Source: Gammaproteobacteria bacterium
GTDB lineage: Bacteria > Pseudomonadota > Gammaproteobacteria > Francisellales > CACEW01
Length of the DNA: 64,000 nucleotides
Direction: 5' to 3'
NCBI GenBank assembly: GCA_020050355.1
Contig: JAGVKT010000036.1
Coordinates: 130,669-194,668, forward strand
Below, piece after piece: positions 39,570 through 54,054 of the stretch. The first letter of the stretch is position 1. Each line of letters starts with the position of its first letter. The notes beneath the pieces are model-generated. The model searched no databases, was not told the origin of the DNA, and saw nothing but the letters and a program-made list of their open reading frames with translations. Position numbers and translations under genes: made by a program.

Positions 39570-40052
39570 TTATTTTTTCTTTTGCTTTTCTGGTAATACT
39601 GAAGAGTGGTGTTCAATAATAAGCCACTGATCATTTTCTTTTAAATACACAAAAGTAAAGCGGGCGGGCACTTCAATCGTATGGTGATGGGGTCCGAGAT
39701 AACTAAAAGTATAAAGTCCAGAATTAACTGCAACCGTATCATTAGCATAGACCCGTGGATGTTCTTGATCAAAAATAACCTGTAGTTGTGGTTTTGCGGT
39801 TAACTTCACAAAATAATTATAAAGATTTTGTGGCGTAGTGATCTCATTCACAAAGGTTGGGTAAAAATAAGCATTGTTATCATAAAGTGCTACAATTGCC
39901 TTGGGGTTGCGCGCATCAATTGCTTGTTGCCAATTCTCGCTGGCATTGAGCACATTTTGTTGTTCAGGCGTATACGCGGCTGTTGGTGTTACTGCAAAAA
40001 CAAAAGAGAAATTAGCAAAAAGACTGGCTGCTAATAATAATTTTTTAATCAT
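39570..40052 (-). CDS. Secreted NTF2-like (DUF4440/SnoaL-like) protein
   Basis: 160 aa. Signal peptide MIKKLLLAASLFANFSFVFA, then an alpha+beta cone-like pattern ending WLIIEHHSS. Its start overlaps the ribE stop (ATGA). Confidence 0.5.
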   Translation of the reverse strand: MIKKLLLAASLFANFSFVFAVTPTAAYTPEQQNVLNASENWQQAIDARNPKAIVALYDNNAYFYPTFVNEITTPQNLYNYFVKLTAKPQLQVIFDQEHPRVYANDTVAVNSGLYTFSYLGPHHHTIEVPARFTFVYLKENDQWLIIEHHSSVLPEKQKKK

Positions 40053-43435: not shown

Positions 43436-43525
43436 ATGGATTTTTTGTATGTTTTAGGCGCGTTTATTTCTGTAACTTTGTTAGGTTATCTTCTTTTCGT
43501 TCTCATTAAACCGGAAAAATTTTAA
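43436..43525 (+). CDS. KdpF-like 29-aa hydrophobic peptide (below the track's length cut-off)
   Basis: MDFLYVLGAFISVTLLGYLLFVLIKPEKF has the same length as E. coli KdpF (MSAGVITGVLLVFLLLGYLVYALINAEAF) and the same C-terminal pattern (LLGYL..x.LI...F). Its stop lies 11 nt before the sugar-porter ATG. No obvious SD. Confidence 0.55.
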   Translation: MDFLYVLGAFISVTLLGYLLFVLIKPEKF

Positions 43526-44925: not shown

Positions 44926-47900
44926 TCAGGTTGTGGGGTGGTAAGTATACCTGAAAGGTGACACCCCACCGTCAGCGTCAGAGGCTGCTATAGAGCCTCC
45001 TCTTGTCACTGCCGCAAGGAAAGCATCAGCAAGATCTGCTCTAGGAGTTCCTCCTCCAAGCCCACTACTGACACTGCTAATAGCGGATGGTAAGTTGGGT
45101 AATAAACCACTATACATACTGCCTAAGGGACTAGAAGCTGGAATAACAGCACCGGATATAGGATTATTGCCATTAGAAACAGGTTCAAATCCTCTTGGTG
45201 TACTGCCAGTAGTGTGAACTTGAACTGTTTCAAAATCATCCTCTGCTGCACCATAAGCATCATTTCTTATTAGTGAATCGCTAGCGTCAACCATACCTAT
45301 TAAAGGATTTGTTCTTTGAAAAAAACCAGCTTGTATGAAAATATATAAGCTTACACCTAAAGCGGCCACTGCTGTGCTTCCAAAGGTTAACATTAATATT
45401 AAGAATGGTAATACAATATTTGCATATGTATTTCTTTCTGCCGAACCTGGAGTAGCTGCATCCAATCTAGTTTTATAAATACTAAAGGCTGTTGTTGCAC
45501 CTCCGGTGAGCAAGCATAGTATAGTATTTAAAGAGAAAAAATATTTACCGTAAGGTGAATTGTATCTCATTGCTATTGCAAGAGATTCTTTTAGGATAAA
45601 AAAACTTCTGTTACGATAGAGTGTGCTTACTACTGCAGCAATGCCTAGCAAGCCACAAACCACATAAAAAGCCACTATAAGACCATATTTAAATGGTGGA
45701 TCGCCTGGCTCAGTAATTACAAAATAAGGGACATAACCCAAACCTGCTAAAATGGCTAGAATCAATATTGATAAAAAAACAGATTGCGTTCTCTCTTGGC
45801 AACGTTCTTTAGCACTATAATATCTACGTAAGCGATTCCAAGCAGCGGCTTCGTATATGCGTGCATAATGGCGATAGGTATTTCTATCTAAGGCGGGCCC
45901 ACTACCAATAAGATATTCATCCCAAAATTTATTAGCATCGGCATTATGTCTTGCAAGGTAAGCACATAAGACGAATGCTTGTTGTTTAGGAGTAAGCAAT
46001 GATGCCAAATGGGGAGTTATAGCTTCTGCCAAATGATCAACCAACTGTCCCTGTGCACCACAAAAAGGTAGGTCTGATATTGTTCTTGCTTTGGGTTTGT
46101 AGTTTTCATAAAGCACTTTTCTTATTGAGCTTGGAAGTCCTAAAATATTTGGAATTTTTGGTTCGAGTGTGCGTGTAATAACGTATCTACCTGCGCTTTC
46201 TTCCATATTGAATAATCTCATCAATAGGCCAATTTTTTCAGCAGATGCTAAAGATGTTCCTGTAGTTTTCTTATAACTTTCTTCAGCATTTTTTCTGTGT
46301 TCTTGCGTTGAAATTAAAGGCAAATCCAAAAGTATTTCTAAGATTTTTGATAAGCAAACCATTAATCTCGGATTTGCCAACAAACATGTTATGCTATCGT
46401 CAGAGCTTTGCGCTGGAAGCGCCGTTTCAATCGGTGAAAACGGAGACCACTTTCCATCAAGTAAAATCTTTAAATAAGTTTTTCTGAGGTTTTTTCGTTC
46501 TGTTGAAAAAATATTCTCTGGAAATAAAAAATGACTTACTACAAAAAATTTTAAACGAGCTAAAATATTTTCTTTGGTTTTTTTATTTAAAATATAGATG
46601 GTGTTTTGTTCTGGTAATAAATAAGTTTTAAGCAGCGTAGATAAAGGCCACAAAATCGTGGATTTAAAAACTTCATTTTGAACAAGATTCAAAAAATTTA
46701 CTAAAATAAAAAACAATCTTGGATAATAAGGGTCATCTTCTAATTTTTCTGAAGAAAACAATGGAGAAGTGTGATCTTCAGTAGGAAATGATCTGAAAAT
46801 ATTTCCATCCTCAAAATGTGCTGCTGCGTTTCCGCCTTCTATTAATATTTGTGTGAGGATGCTTGTACGATAATCCTCAGAGGTATTGATAATAAAAGCA
46901 CAAAAATTTTTAAATTTATCTGCTGTAATGAATTTCATCATATTTGAGATGGATGGTAATGGTGGAATAGATAAAATGCTATTAACAGGTGGAACGGAGC
47001 GTACTCGGCTCGCCCCTGCGCCAGCTCCAGCTCCAGCAAACACTGGAGAAAATGTGCTACTGGCTTCTCGATAAGGAAGTAACAAGCGTACATCTATTCG
47101 CAGCTCATTGGCAGGATTTGTGTCTGTGCCTGGCAGAGGAGAGGCAGTTATTCTATCGCCCATGGTTTTTTGCGCTAATTCTAAAAATGCACCTAAAGAT
47201 GTTTTTTCAGAGGCTTGTGAATACCATTCTTCTGGAGCTTCTAAATATGGGTTTATGCCGTCAATAATTGTTGATGAACTTTGTAGATGTATAAGCGCGG
47301 CCTCTAAAGCAATTAAACTACAAGGGCCATCGATGTGAATATAATTTTTTAAAAATGTGCTAACATTTTTTTGGGTTCTTGGTGTATACCAACCTAATAA
47401 CTTACCTAATATAGATGCGGTTCGTTTATCGGTAAAATTTGGAAGGGCGCTATTTATTAAAAGGTCATCAGTTTCAGTTGAGTGATCATCGGTTGGCGGA
47501 GAAATAGAGCAAAGTAGCAAGGCTTCAAATAATCTCGCTACAAATAAAGAATGAGGGGCTGAAATTCTTTCAAAGCTGGGGATCCAGTAAGCATGAGCTT
47601 TTGTTAGAAAGGCTTCAATTTTTAGCTGTCTGTCAGTGAGTCCTTCATCTAATAAAAAAGTATATTTGTGTACTTGATCGTCATAGTACGCACCGGAAGC
47701 GAGAAAGAGAGCATCAATAAAGTTCACTGCTGCAACATAATCAAAATCCTGCCCTGTTTTAGCGCAAATTTTATTTATTAACACAGCAACTCTTCTAGAA
47801 AAAGCTTCTGTAACAGATGCTGTATTCAATTTCCAAAAAATAAATAAACATGAAAGGCTGGTTACGTAATTAACGAATGCTGGGAATATTTTTTTGGGCA

Positions 47901-48123
47901 AACTTTGTTTACTAGTGTCTATTGTAGTAGTAAAAAAACTCAACCATTCATCAGTTATAGCTGCTGTAGGACTTATAAATGTAAATTTTTTCTCGATTTC
48001 TAGCCATAAGCGTCGTAAAGAAGTTTCATCAAGCTCTAAACTACTTTGCAAACTAAGGTAGGCTCTAAGGGTTGTTTGTAAGTCTTGATAAGAGGTAGCA
48101 GAAAAACGTTGAACAGCAAGCAT
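44926..48123 (-). CDS. Large orphan protein (1065 aa): soluble helical N-terminal ~770 aa, a cluster of ~5 TM helices, and a Gly/Ser/Pro-rich tail
   Basis: An uninterrupted 3.2 kb ORF. TM segments include VFLSILILAILAGLGYVPYFVI, GLIVAFYVVCGLLGIAAVVSTLY and ANIVLPFLILMLTFGSTAVAALGVSLYIFI. No family was recognised. Confidence 0.7.
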   Translation of the reverse strand: MLAVQRFSATSYQDLQTTLRAYLSLQSSLELDETSLRRLWLEIEKKFTFISPTAAITDEWLSFFTTTIDTSKQSLPKKIFPAFVNYVTSLSCLFIFWKLNTASVTEAFSRRVAVLINKICAKTGQDFDYVAAVNFIDALFLASGAYYDDQVHKYTFLLDEGLTDRQLKIEAFLTKAHAYWIPSFERISAPHSLFVARLFEALLLCSISPPTDDHSTETDDLLINSALPNFTDKRTASILGKLLGWYTPRTQKNVSTFLKNYIHIDGPCSLIALEAALIHLQSSSTIIDGINPYLEAPEEWYSQASEKTSLGAFLELAQKTMGDRITASPLPGTDTNPANELRIDVRLLLPYREASSTFSPVFAGAGAGAGASRVRSVPPVNSILSIPPLPSISNMMKFITADKFKNFCAFIINTSEDYRTSILTQILIEGGNAAAHFEDGNIFRSFPTEDHTSPLFSSEKLEDDPYYPRLFFILVNFLNLVQNEVFKSTILWPLSTLLKTYLLPEQNTIYILNKKTKENILARLKFFVVSHFLFPENIFSTERKNLRKTYLKILLDGKWSPFSPIETALPAQSSDDSITCLLANPRLMVCLSKILEILLDLPLISTQEHRKNAEESYKKTTGTSLASAEKIGLLMRLFNMEESAGRYVITRTLEPKIPNILGLPSSIRKVLYENYKPKARTISDLPFCGAQGQLVDHLAEAITPHLASLLTPKQQAFVLCAYLARHNADANKFWDEYLIGSGPALDRNTYRHYARIYEAAAWNRLRRYYSAKERCQERTQSVFLSILILAILAGLGYVPYFVITEPGDPPFKYGLIVAFYVVCGLLGIAAVVSTLYRNRSFFILKESLAIAMRYNSPYGKYFFSLNTILCLLTGGATTAFSIYKTRLDAATPGSAERNTYANIVLPFLILMLTFGSTAVAALGVSLYIFIQAGFFQRTNPLIGMVDASDSLIRNDAYGAAEDDFETVQVHTTGSTPRGFEPVSNGNNPISGAVIPASSPLGSMYSGLLPNLPSAISSVSSGLGGGTPRADLADAFLAAVTRGGSIAASDADGGVSPFRYTYHPTT

Positions 48124-48226
48124 AGCAATTAATATATTAGTTAAAACGACAACAATATAGCATGATTGAAAAAAAATTATTGTTCAAACATTGATTGTAC
48201 TGTTCAAATAAGGTTCTAAAATAAAT

Positions 48227-48270
48227 CTGCCAGGCTAGCTTCTTACGAAGGCAATACCTGGCAGGTTTTT
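48227..48270 (-). terminator. Hairpin downstream of the small peptide gene, with U-tracts on both strands
   Basis: CTGCCAGG (48227-48234) pairs with CCTGGCAG (48257-48264), with an inner CTTC/GAAG stem. It is flanked by ATTTATTTT on the minus strand and GTTTTTATT on the plus strand. Confidence 0.5.
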
Positions 48271-48309
48271 ATTCCTATTTTTGTTTAGGAATTGGAGATT
48301 CTTCAGGTT

Positions 48310-48438
48310 TTAGCAGGCGCCTGGAGCACAATTAATGGCTACTGTCTGTTGTTCAGCAGGATAAGCTTGAACAATGTTAGCACTAATTGTAAACGCCAAG
48401 GCGGAGTAGACCATAAGAAGAAGTAGGAGTTTTTTCAT
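48310..48438 (-). CDS. Small secreted peptide precursor (42 aa; predicted mature 17-mer YPAEQQTVAINCAPGAC)
   Basis: Hand-translated: MKKLLLLLMVYSALAFTISANIVQA/YPAEQQTVAINCAPGAC*. A GGAGA RBS lies 6-7 nt upstream. It has a consensus-like promoter and a downstream hairpin. It is below the track's size cut-off. Confidence 0.6.
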   Translation of the reverse strand: MKKLLLLLMVYSALAFTISANIVQAYPAEQQTVAINCAPGAC

Positions 48439-48469
48439 TTTTATTCTCCACTCACCTTCCTACATTTTT

Positions 48470-48498
48470 AGTATATTCTTATGCTCTAGGAATGTCAA
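48470..48498 (-). promoter_or_regulatory. Candidate sigma70 promoter of the small peptide gene
   Basis: The minus strand reads TTGACA (48498-48493), 17 nt spacer, TATACT (48475-48470). Confidence 0.5.
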
Positions 48499-48726
48499 GA
48501 AAATGACCATAAAAAAGGCTGAACTAAGGCCTTAAAATTTGAGAATTATTAATGAGTTAAATTGAAACTAAAAGATCATGAAAAAGACCATATTTTTGTT
48601 CTTAAAATATACTGAATATACTCATGCTTCAAAACACTGGAATTTTAACAAATAGTTTTGTTGGCTAATAAATCTTCTTTGATTTGCAATAGACCAGCTA
48701 TTTCTCACCTAAATGAGTATATGAGG

Positions 48727-49569
48727 TTAAAAATGCTTAAAAAAATCAGTGCTGCTGATAATCATGATTAAGAAAATTATGATTAAAAAAGCCACATAAA
48801 GCCGCGCTTGGCGTTTATCATTCATGTGCTTTAATAATTTTTGACCGATGACAGCACCTAAAAAAGAACCTAATTGGATTAATACAAAAGCCGGGAAGTT
48901 AATGTAGCCCCATGAGTAAGGGGGCATCATAGCTTTATTCTCTAATCCATCCATGATATAGCCGATGCTGCCAATTAAAGCCAAAATGGGCATTACCGCC
49001 ACTGTAAAAGCTGTCGCATTTTTCATGGGTAATTTAAAATGTCTAAGGTAGGGCACCAATACGATATTGCCACCAATACCAATTAAAATACTTAAATTAC
49101 CTACAAAAAATCCCATGCATCCTTTATTCCACCATGAAGGTTCTTTAAAGTCATGTAATTGATAGGGAGTGTCAAAATCTTTTTTGATCAGTGCATAGAT
49201 AATGATCAAGGCTAAGAAAAAAACAAATAAGTCATTTAAGATCACGCCGGATAAACGATGAGCAAGGAGCACCCCAGAAAAGCCGCCTATCACTACAAAA
49301 GGTATGAATTTACCGACCAGCGCCCATAATACTTTTCCAGCTTTATTTTGCTTATAAAGTACGTTTAAGGTGCTGGTCATAATGGTGATTAAAGAAGTTG
49401 CTATGGCTATTTTCATTGCTAGATCTTGGTTATAACCCTGATGCAAAAAAAATATAAAAACGAAAGGTACAATAATTAACCCTCCACCAATTCCAAAGAG
49501 CATGGAGAGCATGCCAACAAAAATTCCAATACAAAAAAAATAAGGGGTGATAAAAAATAAGGAAGTCAT
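48727..49569 (-). CDS. TauE/SafE-family anion exporter (DUF81)
   Basis: 280 aa with 8 TM segments and the repeated GIGGG motif (FGIGGGLIIVP / IGIGGNIVLVP). Confidence 0.85.
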   Translation of the reverse strand: MTSLFFITPYFFCIGIFVGMLSMLFGIGGGLIIVPFVFIFFLHQGYNQDLAMKIAIATSLITIMTSTLNVLYKQNKAGKVLWALVGKFIPFVVIGGFSGVLLAHRLSGVILNDLFVFFLALIIIYALIKKDFDTPYQLHDFKEPSWWNKGCMGFFVGNLSILIGIGGNIVLVPYLRHFKLPMKNATAFTVAVMPILALIGSIGYIMDGLENKAMMPPYSWGYINFPAFVLIQLGSFLGAVIGQKLLKHMNDKRQARLYVAFLIIIFLIMIISSTDFFKHF

Positions 49570-49629: not shown

Positions 49630-49851
49630 TTAAGAAAATAGGTGAGGGTGATTTTTACGAATAACGTTTGCTAAGTCTATATCGATCATACCGATTTTTT
49701 CCATGTGATCAATATAAGATTTTACTTCATTATTAGCGATAATTTCTAATTCATTTTCGTAACGCACCAACATCGATCCTGTTGGATCTTCATTGGGAGC
49801 CACAATTTCACGAATTGGTTTTGAATGATCATGGGATTGATATATTTTCAT
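49630..49851 (-). CDS. Hypothetical small protein (73 aa)
   Basis: ORF only. It is acidic and soluble, and no motif was recognised. Confidence 0.35.
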   Translation of the reverse strand: MKIYQSHDHSKPIREIVAPNEDPTGSMLVRYENELEIIANNEVKSYIDHMEKIGMIDIDLANVIRKNHPHLFS

Positions 49852-51032: not shown

Positions 51033-51431
51033 TTATTCCAGCATGATACAAACTGCATTGAAAGCATTTAAAGCATAGGCAATAGCTCTTGGAGGAATTT
51101 GCTCAGGTTCAATGCCAGGGCCTAAGATAGCTGTGCCGATGGGCTTCATAAATTCTAGTTGTAAATTAATGATGGCCTGAATTACTGCTTGTCCCATAAC
51201 TAAGCCATGTTGAGTTTCGCCTTTTTCGATAATGCCCAAAACCACTACAGCATCGATTTCTTTTTGGAGTAAAAGTCGTTTGATTGCCAAGGGCTTTTCC
51301 ATCGACCCAGGGACTGGAACTTCTGTGGCAATTTTTATTTTTTTTGTGAGCGCAGCAGCACGAACAGCTTCAAGCATTTGCAAAGCATAGTCTTGATGGT
51401 ACGTGCCGTAAATGATTGCAATATTTTTCAT
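51033..51431 (-). CDS. Lumazine-synthase (DMRL synthase) family protein, short and divergent
   Basis: 132 aa. It aligns by eye to E. coli lumazine synthase: VPVPGSMEKPLAIKRLL..EIDAVVVLGIIEKGETQHG vs VWVPGAYELPLAAGALA..KYDAVVALGTVIRGGTAHF. The N-terminal RFN segment is not conserved. Confidence 0.55.
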   Translation of the reverse strand: MKNIAIIYGTYHQDYALQMLEAVRAAALTKKIKIATEVPVPGSMEKPLAIKRLLLQKEIDAVVVLGIIEKGETQHGLVMGQAVIQAIINLQLEFMKPIGTAILGPGIEPEQIPPRAIAYALNAFNAVCIMLE

Positions 51432-51770
51432 CGAATGGGCTTTAAGTTTATTTAAAATAAATAGATGATAGCAGAATTTTTAATTTGACCAAAGCTTTAG
51501 GCTAGAATTTACAGGAATTACTTTTACCCCGGCAACTAGTGCTGACAAGGCTGATTTGAAACTGCTGAGAGATGAAAATAGTAGCATAAATCTGGATTTT
51601 TAAATTATGATCCGGTGTTTAACTTAAAAAAACCAGATTTATCTACTTGCTTCAGAGAGAGACGTCTTATTTTTTTCTAACTCCACAATAACACGAAGGG
51701 TAGTGTTTGCTAATTTTTTTTGCAAAGATATTTGCAGAATCAACAAGTTAACTTATAAATCACTTTATTA

Positions 51771-51798
51771 ACTTCGTATAATATATATTATGTTAAAT
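51771..51798 (+). other. dif: Candidate dif site (XerC/XerD chromosome dimer resolution site)
   Basis: ACTTCGTATAA-TATATA-TTATGTTAAAT compared with E. coli dif GGTGCGCATAA-TGTATA-TTATGTTAAAT. XerD arm 11/11, spacer 5/6, XerC arm 7/11. It lies in the largest non-coding gap of the window. Confidence 0.7.
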
Positions 51799-52221
51799 TA
51801 TTATGGATATTTTGCCCTTTTTCTTGTATCCACCCCGCTTATTTTGCATTAACAAACATTAAAGATTTATTGCTTCGTATAATAAAATTTTTTTTCTGCG
51901 GTTATTAATTTTCGATAAATACCAATAAAATCAACATGTTATGTAAGTTACTAAAATATAAGAGTAGCACCCTACTTTTTGAATTAATGTCGTTTATTAT
52001 TTCTCATTTTGACTTAAGCTAGAGTGACTATTATGATGGAACAGATCTAATTAAAAGATCATGCTTTTAGAATAATAAGAAAAAATTAAAAAGCATAAAA
52101 ACAACAAAAATATGAAAACGTGAGGACTCTCTTTTGTAAAGTAGTGAAGTAAAATATAAAGAGCTTGTTTTGTTAAAAAAACAAAAAAATATCGTGCAAA
52201 ACAAACTCTCTTAAATAAACT

Positions 52222-52263
52222 AAAAATCTCTTTGTTGGTAGTTTTAACAAAGAGATTTTTTTT
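52222..52263. terminator. Bidirectional rho-independent terminator 3' of pyrD
   Basis: AAAAATCTCTTTGTT (52222-52236), 9 nt loop, AACAAAGAGATTTTT (52246-52260). This is a perfect 15 bp stem with T-runs on both strands. Confidence 0.75.
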
Positions 52264-52275
52264 AAGCAAAAAAAA

Positions 52276-53307
52276 TTAGCTGGCGTTTGGTAAACGATTA
52301 AGGCATCGCCTGATAAGATCAGGACCTTGATAAATTAATCCCGTATATAATTGAACTAATTGGGCTCCTGCAGCAAATTTTTGTAACATTACCTCTGGAC
52401 TCATTACTCCTCCTGATGCGATGAGTGGAATTTGTCCTTTTAATTCTTTAGAAAATAATTGTAAAACTTCGGTGCTGCGATAACGTAAGGGATAGCCGCT
52501 TAAGCCCCCCACTTCTTGGCTTTGTTTATAAGCCGCAATTTCTGTGCGTGCGGTAGTGGTATTAGTTGCGATGATGCCATCGACCTTTAAGCGGAAAAAA
52601 GTATCTGCTAATGTTATGATTTCGCTTTCTGTTAAATCAGGTGCTATTTTTACGACTAAAGGTACTTTTTTTTGGCATGCTTGTATTAATTTATTTTGCT
52701 CTTGTTTTAGAGTTTTTAAGAGTTGTTCCAAAAACTCTCCATGTTGTAAATTTCTTAAGCCTAAAGTGTTGGGTGATGAAATATTAATTACAATATAATC
52801 AGCATGGGCATAAGCTTTTTTAAAGCAAAGTAAATAATCGTTTGTAGCATCTTCAAGTGGTGTTGATGCGTTTTTGCCGATGTTAATGCCTAAGATACCT
52901 CTATATTTTGAGAGCTTTACTCGCTCAAGCAGATAATCAATGCCTTTATTATTAAATCCCATGCGATTAATTAAGGCTTCTGCAGCTGGAATTCTAAATA
53001 AGCGTGGTTTAGGATTTCCGTTTTGTGGCAAGGGTGTGGTTGTGCCGACTTCAATAAAGCCAAATCCCAGGGATGCTAAGGCATCAATATAATCCCCATT
53101 TTTATCTAAGCCTGCTGCTAAACCTATAGGATTTTTAAATTTTAATCCCATGTATTTGCATTCCAACCCTGTTATATTGCGCACTTTTTTGTAAAAAAAC
53201 TGCCCTACCCCAAAATTATGCAAAGCCTTTAAGGAAGCCAGGGCTAAACGGTGTGAAACTTCGGGATCAAGTCTGAAAGCTAAGGATTTAAATAAAGTAT
53301 AATTCAT
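52276..53307 (-). CDS. pyrD: Dihydroorotate dehydrogenase (quinone), class 2
   Basis: 343 aa. Contains FKNPIGLAAGLDKNG, GFIEVGTTTP, NISSPNT and GGLSG. Confidence 0.93.
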   Translation of the reverse strand: MNYTLFKSLAFRLDPEVSHRLALASLKALHNFGVGQFFYKKVRNITGLECKYMGLKFKNPIGLAAGLDKNGDYIDALASLGFGFIEVGTTTPLPQNGNPKPRLFRIPAAEALINRMGFNNKGIDYLLERVKLSKYRGILGINIGKNASTPLEDATNDYLLCFKKAYAHADYIVINISSPNTLGLRNLQHGEFLEQLLKTLKQEQNKLIQACQKKVPLVVKIAPDLTESEIITLADTFFRLKVDGIIATNTTTARTEIAAYKQSQEVGGLSGYPLRYRSTEVLQLFSKELKGQIPLIASGGVMSPEVMLQKFAAGAQLVQLYTGLIYQGPDLIRRCLNRLPNAS

Positions 53308-53433: not shown

Positions 53434-54054
53434 ATGAAAAAGATCATAATTGCAACCACACTTGCTATAGGCTGCGCTTCAGCTTTTGCTGTCACCGCTC
53501 AATCAGGTATATATGTAGGTGGTTTAGGCGGTTGGTCATTTGCTGATAGCCCAACAACTGGACAAATGGTAGCAACCAGCAAAGATAACCATAACTATAC
53601 TTTAGGTGGTACAGTTGGTTACAACTATGCTATTAATCAAAACTGGTTAACAGGTTTTGAAGTAAGCTATTTGAATTTTGGAGAAACCAAATATAACGCA
53701 TCTTATGGTAACACCAATTTAAAAAATTACGGTGTTCAATTAATGGCTACTGGCACTTATCTCATGGCTAACGGCTTTAACGTTTTTGCTAAAGCTGGTG
53801 CTATAGATCAAACCATGACTTCTAGCAATAATATGTATGCGCTCAATAGCAACAATGGTAATACCAAAATTACTAAATGGTTGCCTGCAGCTGCGGCTGG
53901 TGTTGGTTATATGCCAACTCAAAACCTCAATATTGCATTACAATATGAGCGTACTTTTGGTACCAATTGGGATAACAATAATTTAAGTGCTACCCCAAAA
54001 CCAATGACCCAAAATGCAGTAACTTTAGGCGTTACTTATACTTTCCCATTGTAA
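53434..54054 (+). CDS. Outer-membrane beta-barrel protein (OMP_b-brl/opacity-like), paralogue 1
   Basis: 206 aa. Signal peptide MKKIIIATTLAIGCASAFA, alternating amphipathic strands, and the C-terminal VTLGVTYTFPL. Confidence 0.8.
   Translation: MKKIIIATTLAIGCASAFAVTAQSGIYVGGLGGWSFADSPTTGQMVATSKDNHNYTLGGTVGYNYAINQNWLTGFEVSYLNFGETKYNASYGNTNLKNYGVQLMATGTYLMANGFNVFAKAGAIDQTMTSSNNMYALNSNNGNTKITKWLPAAAAGVGYMPTQNLNIALQYERTFGTNWDNNNLSATPKPMTQNAVTLGVTYTFPL

Follow-up and report, generated by a model that had tools for sequence, protein, structure and literature searches.

Does the 603-nucleotide (nt) gap between a TauE/TSUP permease gene and a 1065-amino-acid (aa) orphan open reading frame (ORF) harbor a small gene of its own, and if so, where would its product act? 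We addressed this question in a stretch of 64,000 nt from a Gammaproteobacteria bacterium of the order Francisellales (assembly GCA_020050355.1, contig JAGVKT010000036.1, positions 130,669 to 194,668 of the forward strand), hereafter called the window, in whose coordinates all positions are given. On the minus strand, the gap contains a 42-codon ORF (48310–48438, including the TAA stop at 48312–48310), whose product is MKKLLLLLMVYSALAFTISANIVQAYPAEQQTVAINCAPGAC. A sequence-only reading had presented it as a self-contained gene for a secreted peptide, possibly of the signaling or toxin kind. We tentatively favor, at a little less than an even chance, the view that this ORF is a true small gene, transcribed on its own and specific to its lineage, which public annotation has missed, and the product is probably best read as a small envelope peptide restricted to this lineage.

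A candidate expression unit in a 603-nt gap

The ORF is preceded, on its own strand, by a sigma-70-type promoter (48470–48498), made of a −35 box TTGACA (48498–48493), a 17-nt spacer, and a −10 box TATACT (48475–48470), and matching 11 of the 12 consensus positions. It is the best match in 9.5 kb, and no second one of this quality is found between 43000 and 52500. Transcription would start near 48463–48461 and give a leader of 25 nt, with a Shine-Dalgarno (SD) sequence GGAG at 48449–48446, i.e., 7 nt 5′ of the ATG at 48438. This ATG is the sole possible start, because the nearest relevant in-frame codon upstream is a TAG stop. Beyond the end of the ORF, a small AU-rich hairpin in the 3′ untranslated region (48271–48292, minus strand, UUCCUAA...UAGGAA; −6.4 kcal/mol, z = −4.8) is followed by an intrinsic terminator (48218–48264, minus strand), in which a 9-bp stem rich in guanine and cytosine (GC) and a branched 22-nt loop (hairpin 48264–48227; −21.1 kcal/mol, z = −5.4 against shuffles) precede AUUUAUUUU. 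A consensus terminator scanner overlooked this hairpin because its loop is long and branched. The terminator has an A-tract upstream and T-tracts on both strands (repeat I1), and it appears bidirectional. Promoter, SD, start, leader of about 25 nt, stop, and terminator hairpin with its U-tract all lie where the sequence-only reading had put them, and the same holds for the setting of the unit, between TauE upstream (PF01925, E = 4e-44) and the 1065-aa orphan downstream (44926–48123), which is on the same strand and 186 nt away. These signals would define an mRNA of about 245 nt, running from a near-consensus promoter to an intrinsic terminator.

No single one of these signals is decisive. Indeed, first-order Markov simulations predict about 2.6 promoter matches of at least 11/12 per 64-kb window, and two are observed, so that the promoter alone is within chance; it is notable for its position, about 25 nt before an SD–ATG pair inside a 603-nt gap. 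Coding potential was measured by a codon log-likelihood trained on the 49 long ORFs of the window. With 0.158 bit/codon, the ORF belongs to the top 3% of the 174 window ORFs of 35–55 codons and stands at the 33rd percentile among 42-codon slices of real genes, i.e., its codon usage is gene-like. Of 319 small ORFs, 10 (about 3%) satisfy a crude rule for the n-, h-, and c-regions of signal peptides, and the present ORF does so most cleanly. All features together are unlikely by chance, and a real expression unit is the most economical reading of their conjunction in a gap that is otherwise empty and unexplained. A repeat or mobile-element origin of the gap was rejected, as no further copy was found in the window or in any retrieved locus and the GC profile around the gene shows no compositional island.

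The exact peptide sequence is not in a collection of 15 billion proteins, while a 73-aa ORF neighboring it on the same 198-kb contig is present, which indicates that the gene is unannotated in the source records. A positive control in the same window, a 29-aa KdpF-like ORF, is likewise absent from the protein collection and yet conserved in relatives, at 62–65% in the syntenic contigs described below. Hence, real small genes of this genome do escape annotation.

The product begins with a segment of Sec signal-peptide form (residues 1–25, 48364–48438), as judged solely by the n/h/c anatomy rule: an MKK start, an h-region from L4 to I18 (15 hydrophobic residues), and a c-region SANIVQA. The hydrophobic stretch as a whole spans residues 4–23; the C-terminal part is polar, with a slight acidic character. 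Together, MKK and the hydrophobic segment would target the 42-aa product to the Sec translocon. The site between VQA and YP has V at −3, A at −1, and Tyr at +1, in agreement with the rule for Sec and signal peptidase I, which asks for a positively charged n-region, some 7–15 hydrophobic residues, a polar c-region with small side chains at −3 and −1, and a residue other than Pro at +1. Val at −3 and Ala at −1 favor, by sequence criteria, a cleavage after residue 25. Signal peptidase I would thus most likely cut after VQA25 and leave in the periplasm the 17 residues YPAEQQTVAINCAPGAC (residues 26–42, 48313–48363), where Cys37 and Cys42 may be oxidized to form a six-residue ring around a Pro-Gly turn. 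Two other outcomes can be considered. By analogy with the peptide TimP, to which we come back below, a real alternative is a product left uncleaved in the inner membrane, N-in/C-out, where both cysteines would again face the periplasm. Another is a short-signal cleavage after residue 15, at a second AXA site (between ALA and F). The calculated masses are 1732.755 Da (monoisotopic; [M+2H]2+ 867.385) for the oxidized 17-mer, 2777.315 Da for the 27-mer of the short-signal cleavage, and 4465.328 Da for the 42-mer left uncleaved. Cleaved or not, the product would be a small protein located in the envelope. Genes for LptA, LptC, OmpA-like barrels, and a Kdo hydroxylase are present in the window; the host is therefore a diderm, and Sec export would end in the periplasm or the inner membrane, not in the medium. 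From the proposal of a self-contained gene for a secreted peptide, we thus keep the expressible unit and its Sec-type N-terminus, and we drop secretion into the medium.

RNA structure of the predicted transcript

For the predicted transcript, about 245 nt long, folding gives −72.5 kcal/mol (z = −4.9), a stability that none of 200 shuffles attains. At its 5′ end, a hairpin (48413–48463, minus strand; −13.5 kcal/mol) forms between the purine-rich leader, which contains the SD, and the CTN codons of leucines 4–8; GGAG is paired with CUCC and the AUG lies in a 16-nt A-rich loop. The 5′ region is more stable than 99.7% of 400 synonymous recodings (z = −3.4) and the full transcript more stable than 99.5% of 400, and leucine codons 4–8 are CTN in five cases out of five, against 38% in window genes (P = 0.008). 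Codon choice appears tuned to occlude the SD, and initiation at ATG 48438 would proceed at a low rate, damped by this pairing. By analogy, such an occlusion, dependent on codon choice, would be what one typically sees in type I toxins and in small membrane proteins kept under tight control. A hairpin that depends on synonymous choices makes sense only if the frame is read and the RNA structure is selected as well, and it thus supports coding. Inside the coding region, a long imperfect hairpin (48318–48403, minus strand; −30.7 kcal/mol, z = −3.5, 0/200 shuffles as stable) pairs the codons of TISANIVQA with those of AEQQTVAINC; its stability only marginally exceeds that dictated by the encoded amino acids (z = −1.75 against synonymous recodings of the ORF alone).

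This structure cuts both ways. It fits a translated gene under RNA-level control, and it also fits a noncoding small RNA (sRNA) of about 245 nt, in which the frame would be incidental, GGAG and KK-LLLLL arising because one frame happens to run through the two arms and the A-rich loop of the 5′ hairpin. The stability of the transcript against shuffles and against synonymous recodings, its organization in three discrete hairpins and a terminator, and the lack of peptide homologues (see below) all speak for an sRNA, and the long annotation of RyfA as an sRNA shows how alike the two classes look (PMC7667032). On the other hand, a 42-codon open frame is uncommon at 34% GC (about 4% of frames by our own estimate), the codon usage is gene-like, and hairpins alone do not explain why all three regions (n, h, and c) of a signal peptide are there, together with a V-x-A site. 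Rfam gave, at the gathering threshold, one tRNA and nothing else in the window, and at E ≤ 10 only chance-level matches in 47900–48800, none of them RyfA (RF00126). No convincing target complementarity was found either. We did observe an exact 16-nt match between 48329–48344 and 53737–53752, which makes the peptide mRNA antisense to an OmpA-like gene (53434–54054). This is the chance level, since a 16-nt antisense match occurs in about 10% of the 603-nt segments drawn at random from the window, and an sRNA acting in trans on this outer membrane protein gene was rejected. We consider a noncoding RNA possible but unlikely, though slightly the likeliest of the alternatives.

Lineage restriction of the locus

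TauE orthologues (60–63% identity) led us to four syntenic contigs (L001, L002, L003, and L088), whose MFS sugar transporter is 86–88% identical to that of the window, itself identified by orthology. The closest database relative, L003, is labeled as an uncultured Thiotrichales metagenome-assembled genome. The order of genes is the same in all four relatives: a 73-aa ORF, TauE, a convergent FtsJ-like methyltransferase gene, the MFS transporter, a 29-aa KdpF-like ORF, TerC, ribB, ribD, ribE, and a SnoaL-like gene. There, the FtsJ-like gene overlaps the TauE stop, which leaves no intergenic space after TauE. At this very place the window carries the peptide gene and the 1065-aa orphan, with no FtsJ remnant under the peptide gene. 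Because the relatives have the FtsJ-like gene here and the window keeps no trace of it, the locus is a lineage-specific replacement, and the peptide gene may have arrived or arisen together with the adjacent orphan. The sequence-only reading had looked to conservation of the frame in relatives. The frame is not conserved: the whole locus is absent rather than decayed, which shows, as far as the sequences go, a lineage restriction and not a loss of function.

Several points weigh against a genuine gene. All four syntenic relatives lack the whole peptide locus, and their fetched flanks contain no small ORF combining a signal peptide and a C-terminal Cys pair. A word-indexed search of 5.8 billion (clustered) proteins found no homologue of the peptide, an exhaustive phmmer search against 1.84 billion representatives found no genuine match (the sole one, P0122, is a spurious repeat protein), and Pfam, NCBIfam, and PADLOC gave no match. 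As there are no homologues, purifying selection on the frame cannot be demonstrated. Moreover, a purine/pyrimidine hairpin with its A-rich loop may by itself account for the GGAG resembling an SD, for the Lys codons, and for the poly-Leu run, and the whole transcript is structured as an sRNA would be (z = −4.9). A free periplasmic 17-mer may also be unstable, and family scans found no exporter or modifying enzyme gene adjacent to the peptide gene.

Matches in PHROGs were non-significant (E = 0.04–0.09) and covered the signal peptide alone. A DNA scan for the degenerate NCAPGAC-stop motif returned five matches in metagenome contigs, of 53–73% GC, out of context and devoid of signal peptide, i.e., due to chance, and none in viral contigs. 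The string "CAPGAC" gave no relevant match in the literature. The peptide is a singleton of the general kind of unannotated small Sec-targeted proteins, in no named family.

Such a singleton could be a translated but unselected ORF, young or decaying, left by the rearrangement that replaced the FtsJ-like gene, maybe through a partial 5′ duplication of a gene for a secreted protein. The locus exists in this genome only, and singleton ORFs are often short-lived. Furthermore, an alignment starting at residue 1 gives 36% identity over 33 aa between the peptide and the N-terminus of the ORF at 39570–40052 (E = 0.024, uncorrected for composition), and the mature AYPAEQQTV of the peptide resembles AYTPEQQNV of this periplasmic SnoaL/DUF4440 protein, encoded 8 kb away, whose orthologues keep Y-x-x-[ED]-QQ-x-V after the signal peptide. 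However, the similarity lies mostly in generic signal-peptide residues, the DNA shared is only a 10-nt run (CTGAACAACA), and the SnoaL gene overlaps the ribE stop and thus has no promoter of its own to donate. The gap holds no remnant of the rest of the SnoaL gene or of FtsJ, and a near-perfect promoter, tuned codons in the 5′ hairpin, and a strong terminator argue for maintenance. An unselected by-product seems to us rather unlikely. As for a truncated SnoaL/DUF4440 paralogue, it was rejected: the N-terminal likeness is suggestive and not significant, and we keep it only as a low-confidence origin.

The SnoaL_3/DUF4440 protein can be described in its own right. It is encoded at the end of the rib operon (39570–40052, minus strand; L001 14694–15323; L002 9481–10074) and bears a conserved motif Y-T-x-[ED]-QQ-x-V-L close to where its signal peptide ends, which in the window copy it follows immediately; YPAEQQTVA of the peptide resembles this motif.

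Among the neighbors, the Pfam scan of the flanking genes covered the 1065-aa orphan (no family), TauE, the 73-aa ORF (of unknown family), BON, and Vut_1. The orphan has no homologue except itself in the 5.8 billion proteins and is absent from the syntenic relatives. It is predicted to be all-alpha, with two transmembrane hairpins (786–832 and 903–935) and a disordered tail rich in Gly and Ser; its AlphaFold model is uninformative (confidence score, pLDDT, of 37) and it has no relative in the PDB. It resembles an effector or an inclusion-membrane protein. Upstream of TauE, the 73-aa ORF (49630–49851, minus strand) is conserved at 66–70% in all four relatives, always paired with this TauE, and has no Pfam, NCBIfam, or PADLOC family. 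The KdpF-like ORF (43436–43525, plus strand; TIGR02115, 32.5 bits for a cut-off of 26.85) lies directly upstream of the MFS sugar transporter; as no kdpABC is found near it, a small membrane protein of the KdpF type appears to be paired here with an MFS transporter. We also noted a stretch of about 840 nt (51432–52275) with a GC content of 0.25–0.29, against about 0.35 around it, located between a 132-aa ORF (51033–51431) and a DHO_dh-like ORF (52276–53307); it contains only tiny ORFs of 25–72 aa, none of them convincing.

Possible functions and known systems

The peptide gene could encode a type I toxin comparable to TimP or Hok, whose N-terminus would stay in the inner membrane and damage or modulate it, and whose expression would be repressed by the fold over the SD and by an antisense or divergent sRNA. 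It shares with type I toxins a hydrophobic peptide of less than 60 aa (here 42) and an mRNA fold that occludes the SD, favored by codon choice, and a lineage-specific location is typical of such systems. The architecture is that of TimP, a peptide of Salmonella and other enterobacteria encoded by ryfA and repressed by the sRNA TimR; TimP has 38 aa and a predicted Sec signal, and its structured mRNA, about 300 nt long, was formerly regarded as an sRNA (PMC7667032). T-tracts are found at the terminator on either strand, and a candidate plus-strand RNA, starting at about 48145 and ending at the same terminator, folds with z = −3.0 (48145–48276). However, the sole plus-strand promoter candidate (48109–48138) matches 9 of 12 positions, and such matches are as frequent as chance would have it, with 30 found for 35 expected. 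There is no match to RyfA or to any toxin or antitoxin RNA family and no second copy in the window, the polar C-terminal part is slightly acidic, not basic, and Val at −3 and Ala at −1 favor a cleavage that would remove the membrane anchor. A type I toxin is, in our opinion, improbable.

Even less probable is the boldest form of the initial proposal, in which a new Sec-exported, disulfide-cyclized peptide of 17 residues, with a Cys-Ala-Pro-Gly-Ala-Cys ring, acts as a diffusible signal or toxin, maybe with the orphan as its receptor, target, or partner. Nothing in our searches bears out the label of signaling or toxin peptide, since the sequence matches no family and has no homologue. Co-occurrence is the only thing that joins the peptide to the orphan, and any functional link between them would be putative; nothing joins it to TauE.

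Finally, it is very improbable that the small ORF and its terminator are a leader or attenuator of the SecM/VemP kind, whose translation or export would decide read-through into the orphan: the latter, a predicted membrane protein, does lie 186 nt downstream on the same strand, with no sigma-70 match of at least 9/12 on this strand between the terminator and its ATG, and CCAGGC at the 3′ end of the ORF could, as read from the sequence, pair with GCCUGG in the 3′ arm of the terminator, but such an anti-terminator has only 6 bp and would be covered by the terminating ribosome, an extended −10 element TGcTATATT (about 48150–48142, minus strand) could be the orphan's own promoter, and no arrest motif is recognizable.

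We come back to the reading of a small envelope peptide, which can be set beside several known families. CX4C rings of six residues occur in oxytocin and vasopressin and as the N-terminal ring of class IIa pediocin-like bacteriocins. The ring size is the same here, and Pro-Gly in mid-ring would favor a tight turn; the known rings are N-terminal or internal, whereas the Cys pair of the peptide is at the extreme C-terminus. The peptide also lacks the YGNGV box and the double-glycine leader of class IIa bacteriocins and microcins, and has no adjacent ABC exporter. For a disulfide-bonded peptide of about 18 residues that follows a Sec signal and leaves a Gram-negative cell, no well-studied precedent is known other than the heat-stable enterotoxin STa. 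STa precursors have a pro-region and six cysteines, oxidized by DsbA to three disulfides; in contrast, the peptide has two Cys, no pro-region, and no Pfam match. Entericidin-like lipoproteins are set apart by their lipobox, [LVI][ASTVI][GAS]C, which the peptide lacks: its first Cys is residue 37, after a polar region, and AINC has Asn at −1.

Bufferins (BufA/DUF2282) are RiPP precursors that are likewise small, contain Cys, and start with a Sec signal. The peptide is far shorter, has no PF10048 match, and no MNIO/DUF692 or HvfC was found among the Pfam-scanned flanking ORFs or the other scanned ORFs of the window. We observed a bufferin-type cluster in a relative (L090 2918–4733, Logan SRR28211852), with BufA1 (PF10048), an MNIO (MbnB_TglH_ChrH), and HvfC_N, just upstream of the syntenic His_Phos_2–TauE genes; none was seen among the scanned window ORFs. 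MgrB and Hok are inner-membrane peptides of about 40–50 aa with an MKK-type start and a single hydrophobic helix, after which a short tail in the periplasm bears two cysteines important for function. The peptide would resemble them by its single helix and its periplasmic Cys pair; it differs in having no homology to them (Pfam, NCBIfam), no PhoQ-type kinase or Sok-like antisense nearby, and a good signal-peptidase site.

If the gene is real, it adds another signal-peptide-bearing small protein of the kind that annotation systematically drops, in a poorly sampled gammaproteobacterial lineage. As a singleton without homologues, it answers no open question alone. It would be a reasonable test case for the translational control of a small envelope peptide, first by the association of a strong promoter with a codon-dependent fold that occludes the SD, and second by its location next to a large orphan membrane protein.

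Among known systems, TimP/ryfA is, by analogy of architecture, the closest working analogue of the peptide gene. The two show no sequence or RNA-family similarity (RF00126 is not matched), TimP is conserved across enterobacteria whereas the peptide ORF is a singleton, and the partner of TimP, TimR, has no identifiable counterpart here. According to the authors of the TimP study, Leu at −3 explains why the signal peptide of TimP escapes cleavage (PMC7667032), whereas the peptide has Val at this position, which favors cleavage. Translation of TimP is reported to be limited by mRNA structure (PMC7667032; PMC11228461, PMC13000454). What the two have in common is a product of about 40 aa with a predicted Sec signal, encoded by a stand-alone structured transcript with its own promoter and terminator and overlooked by annotation.

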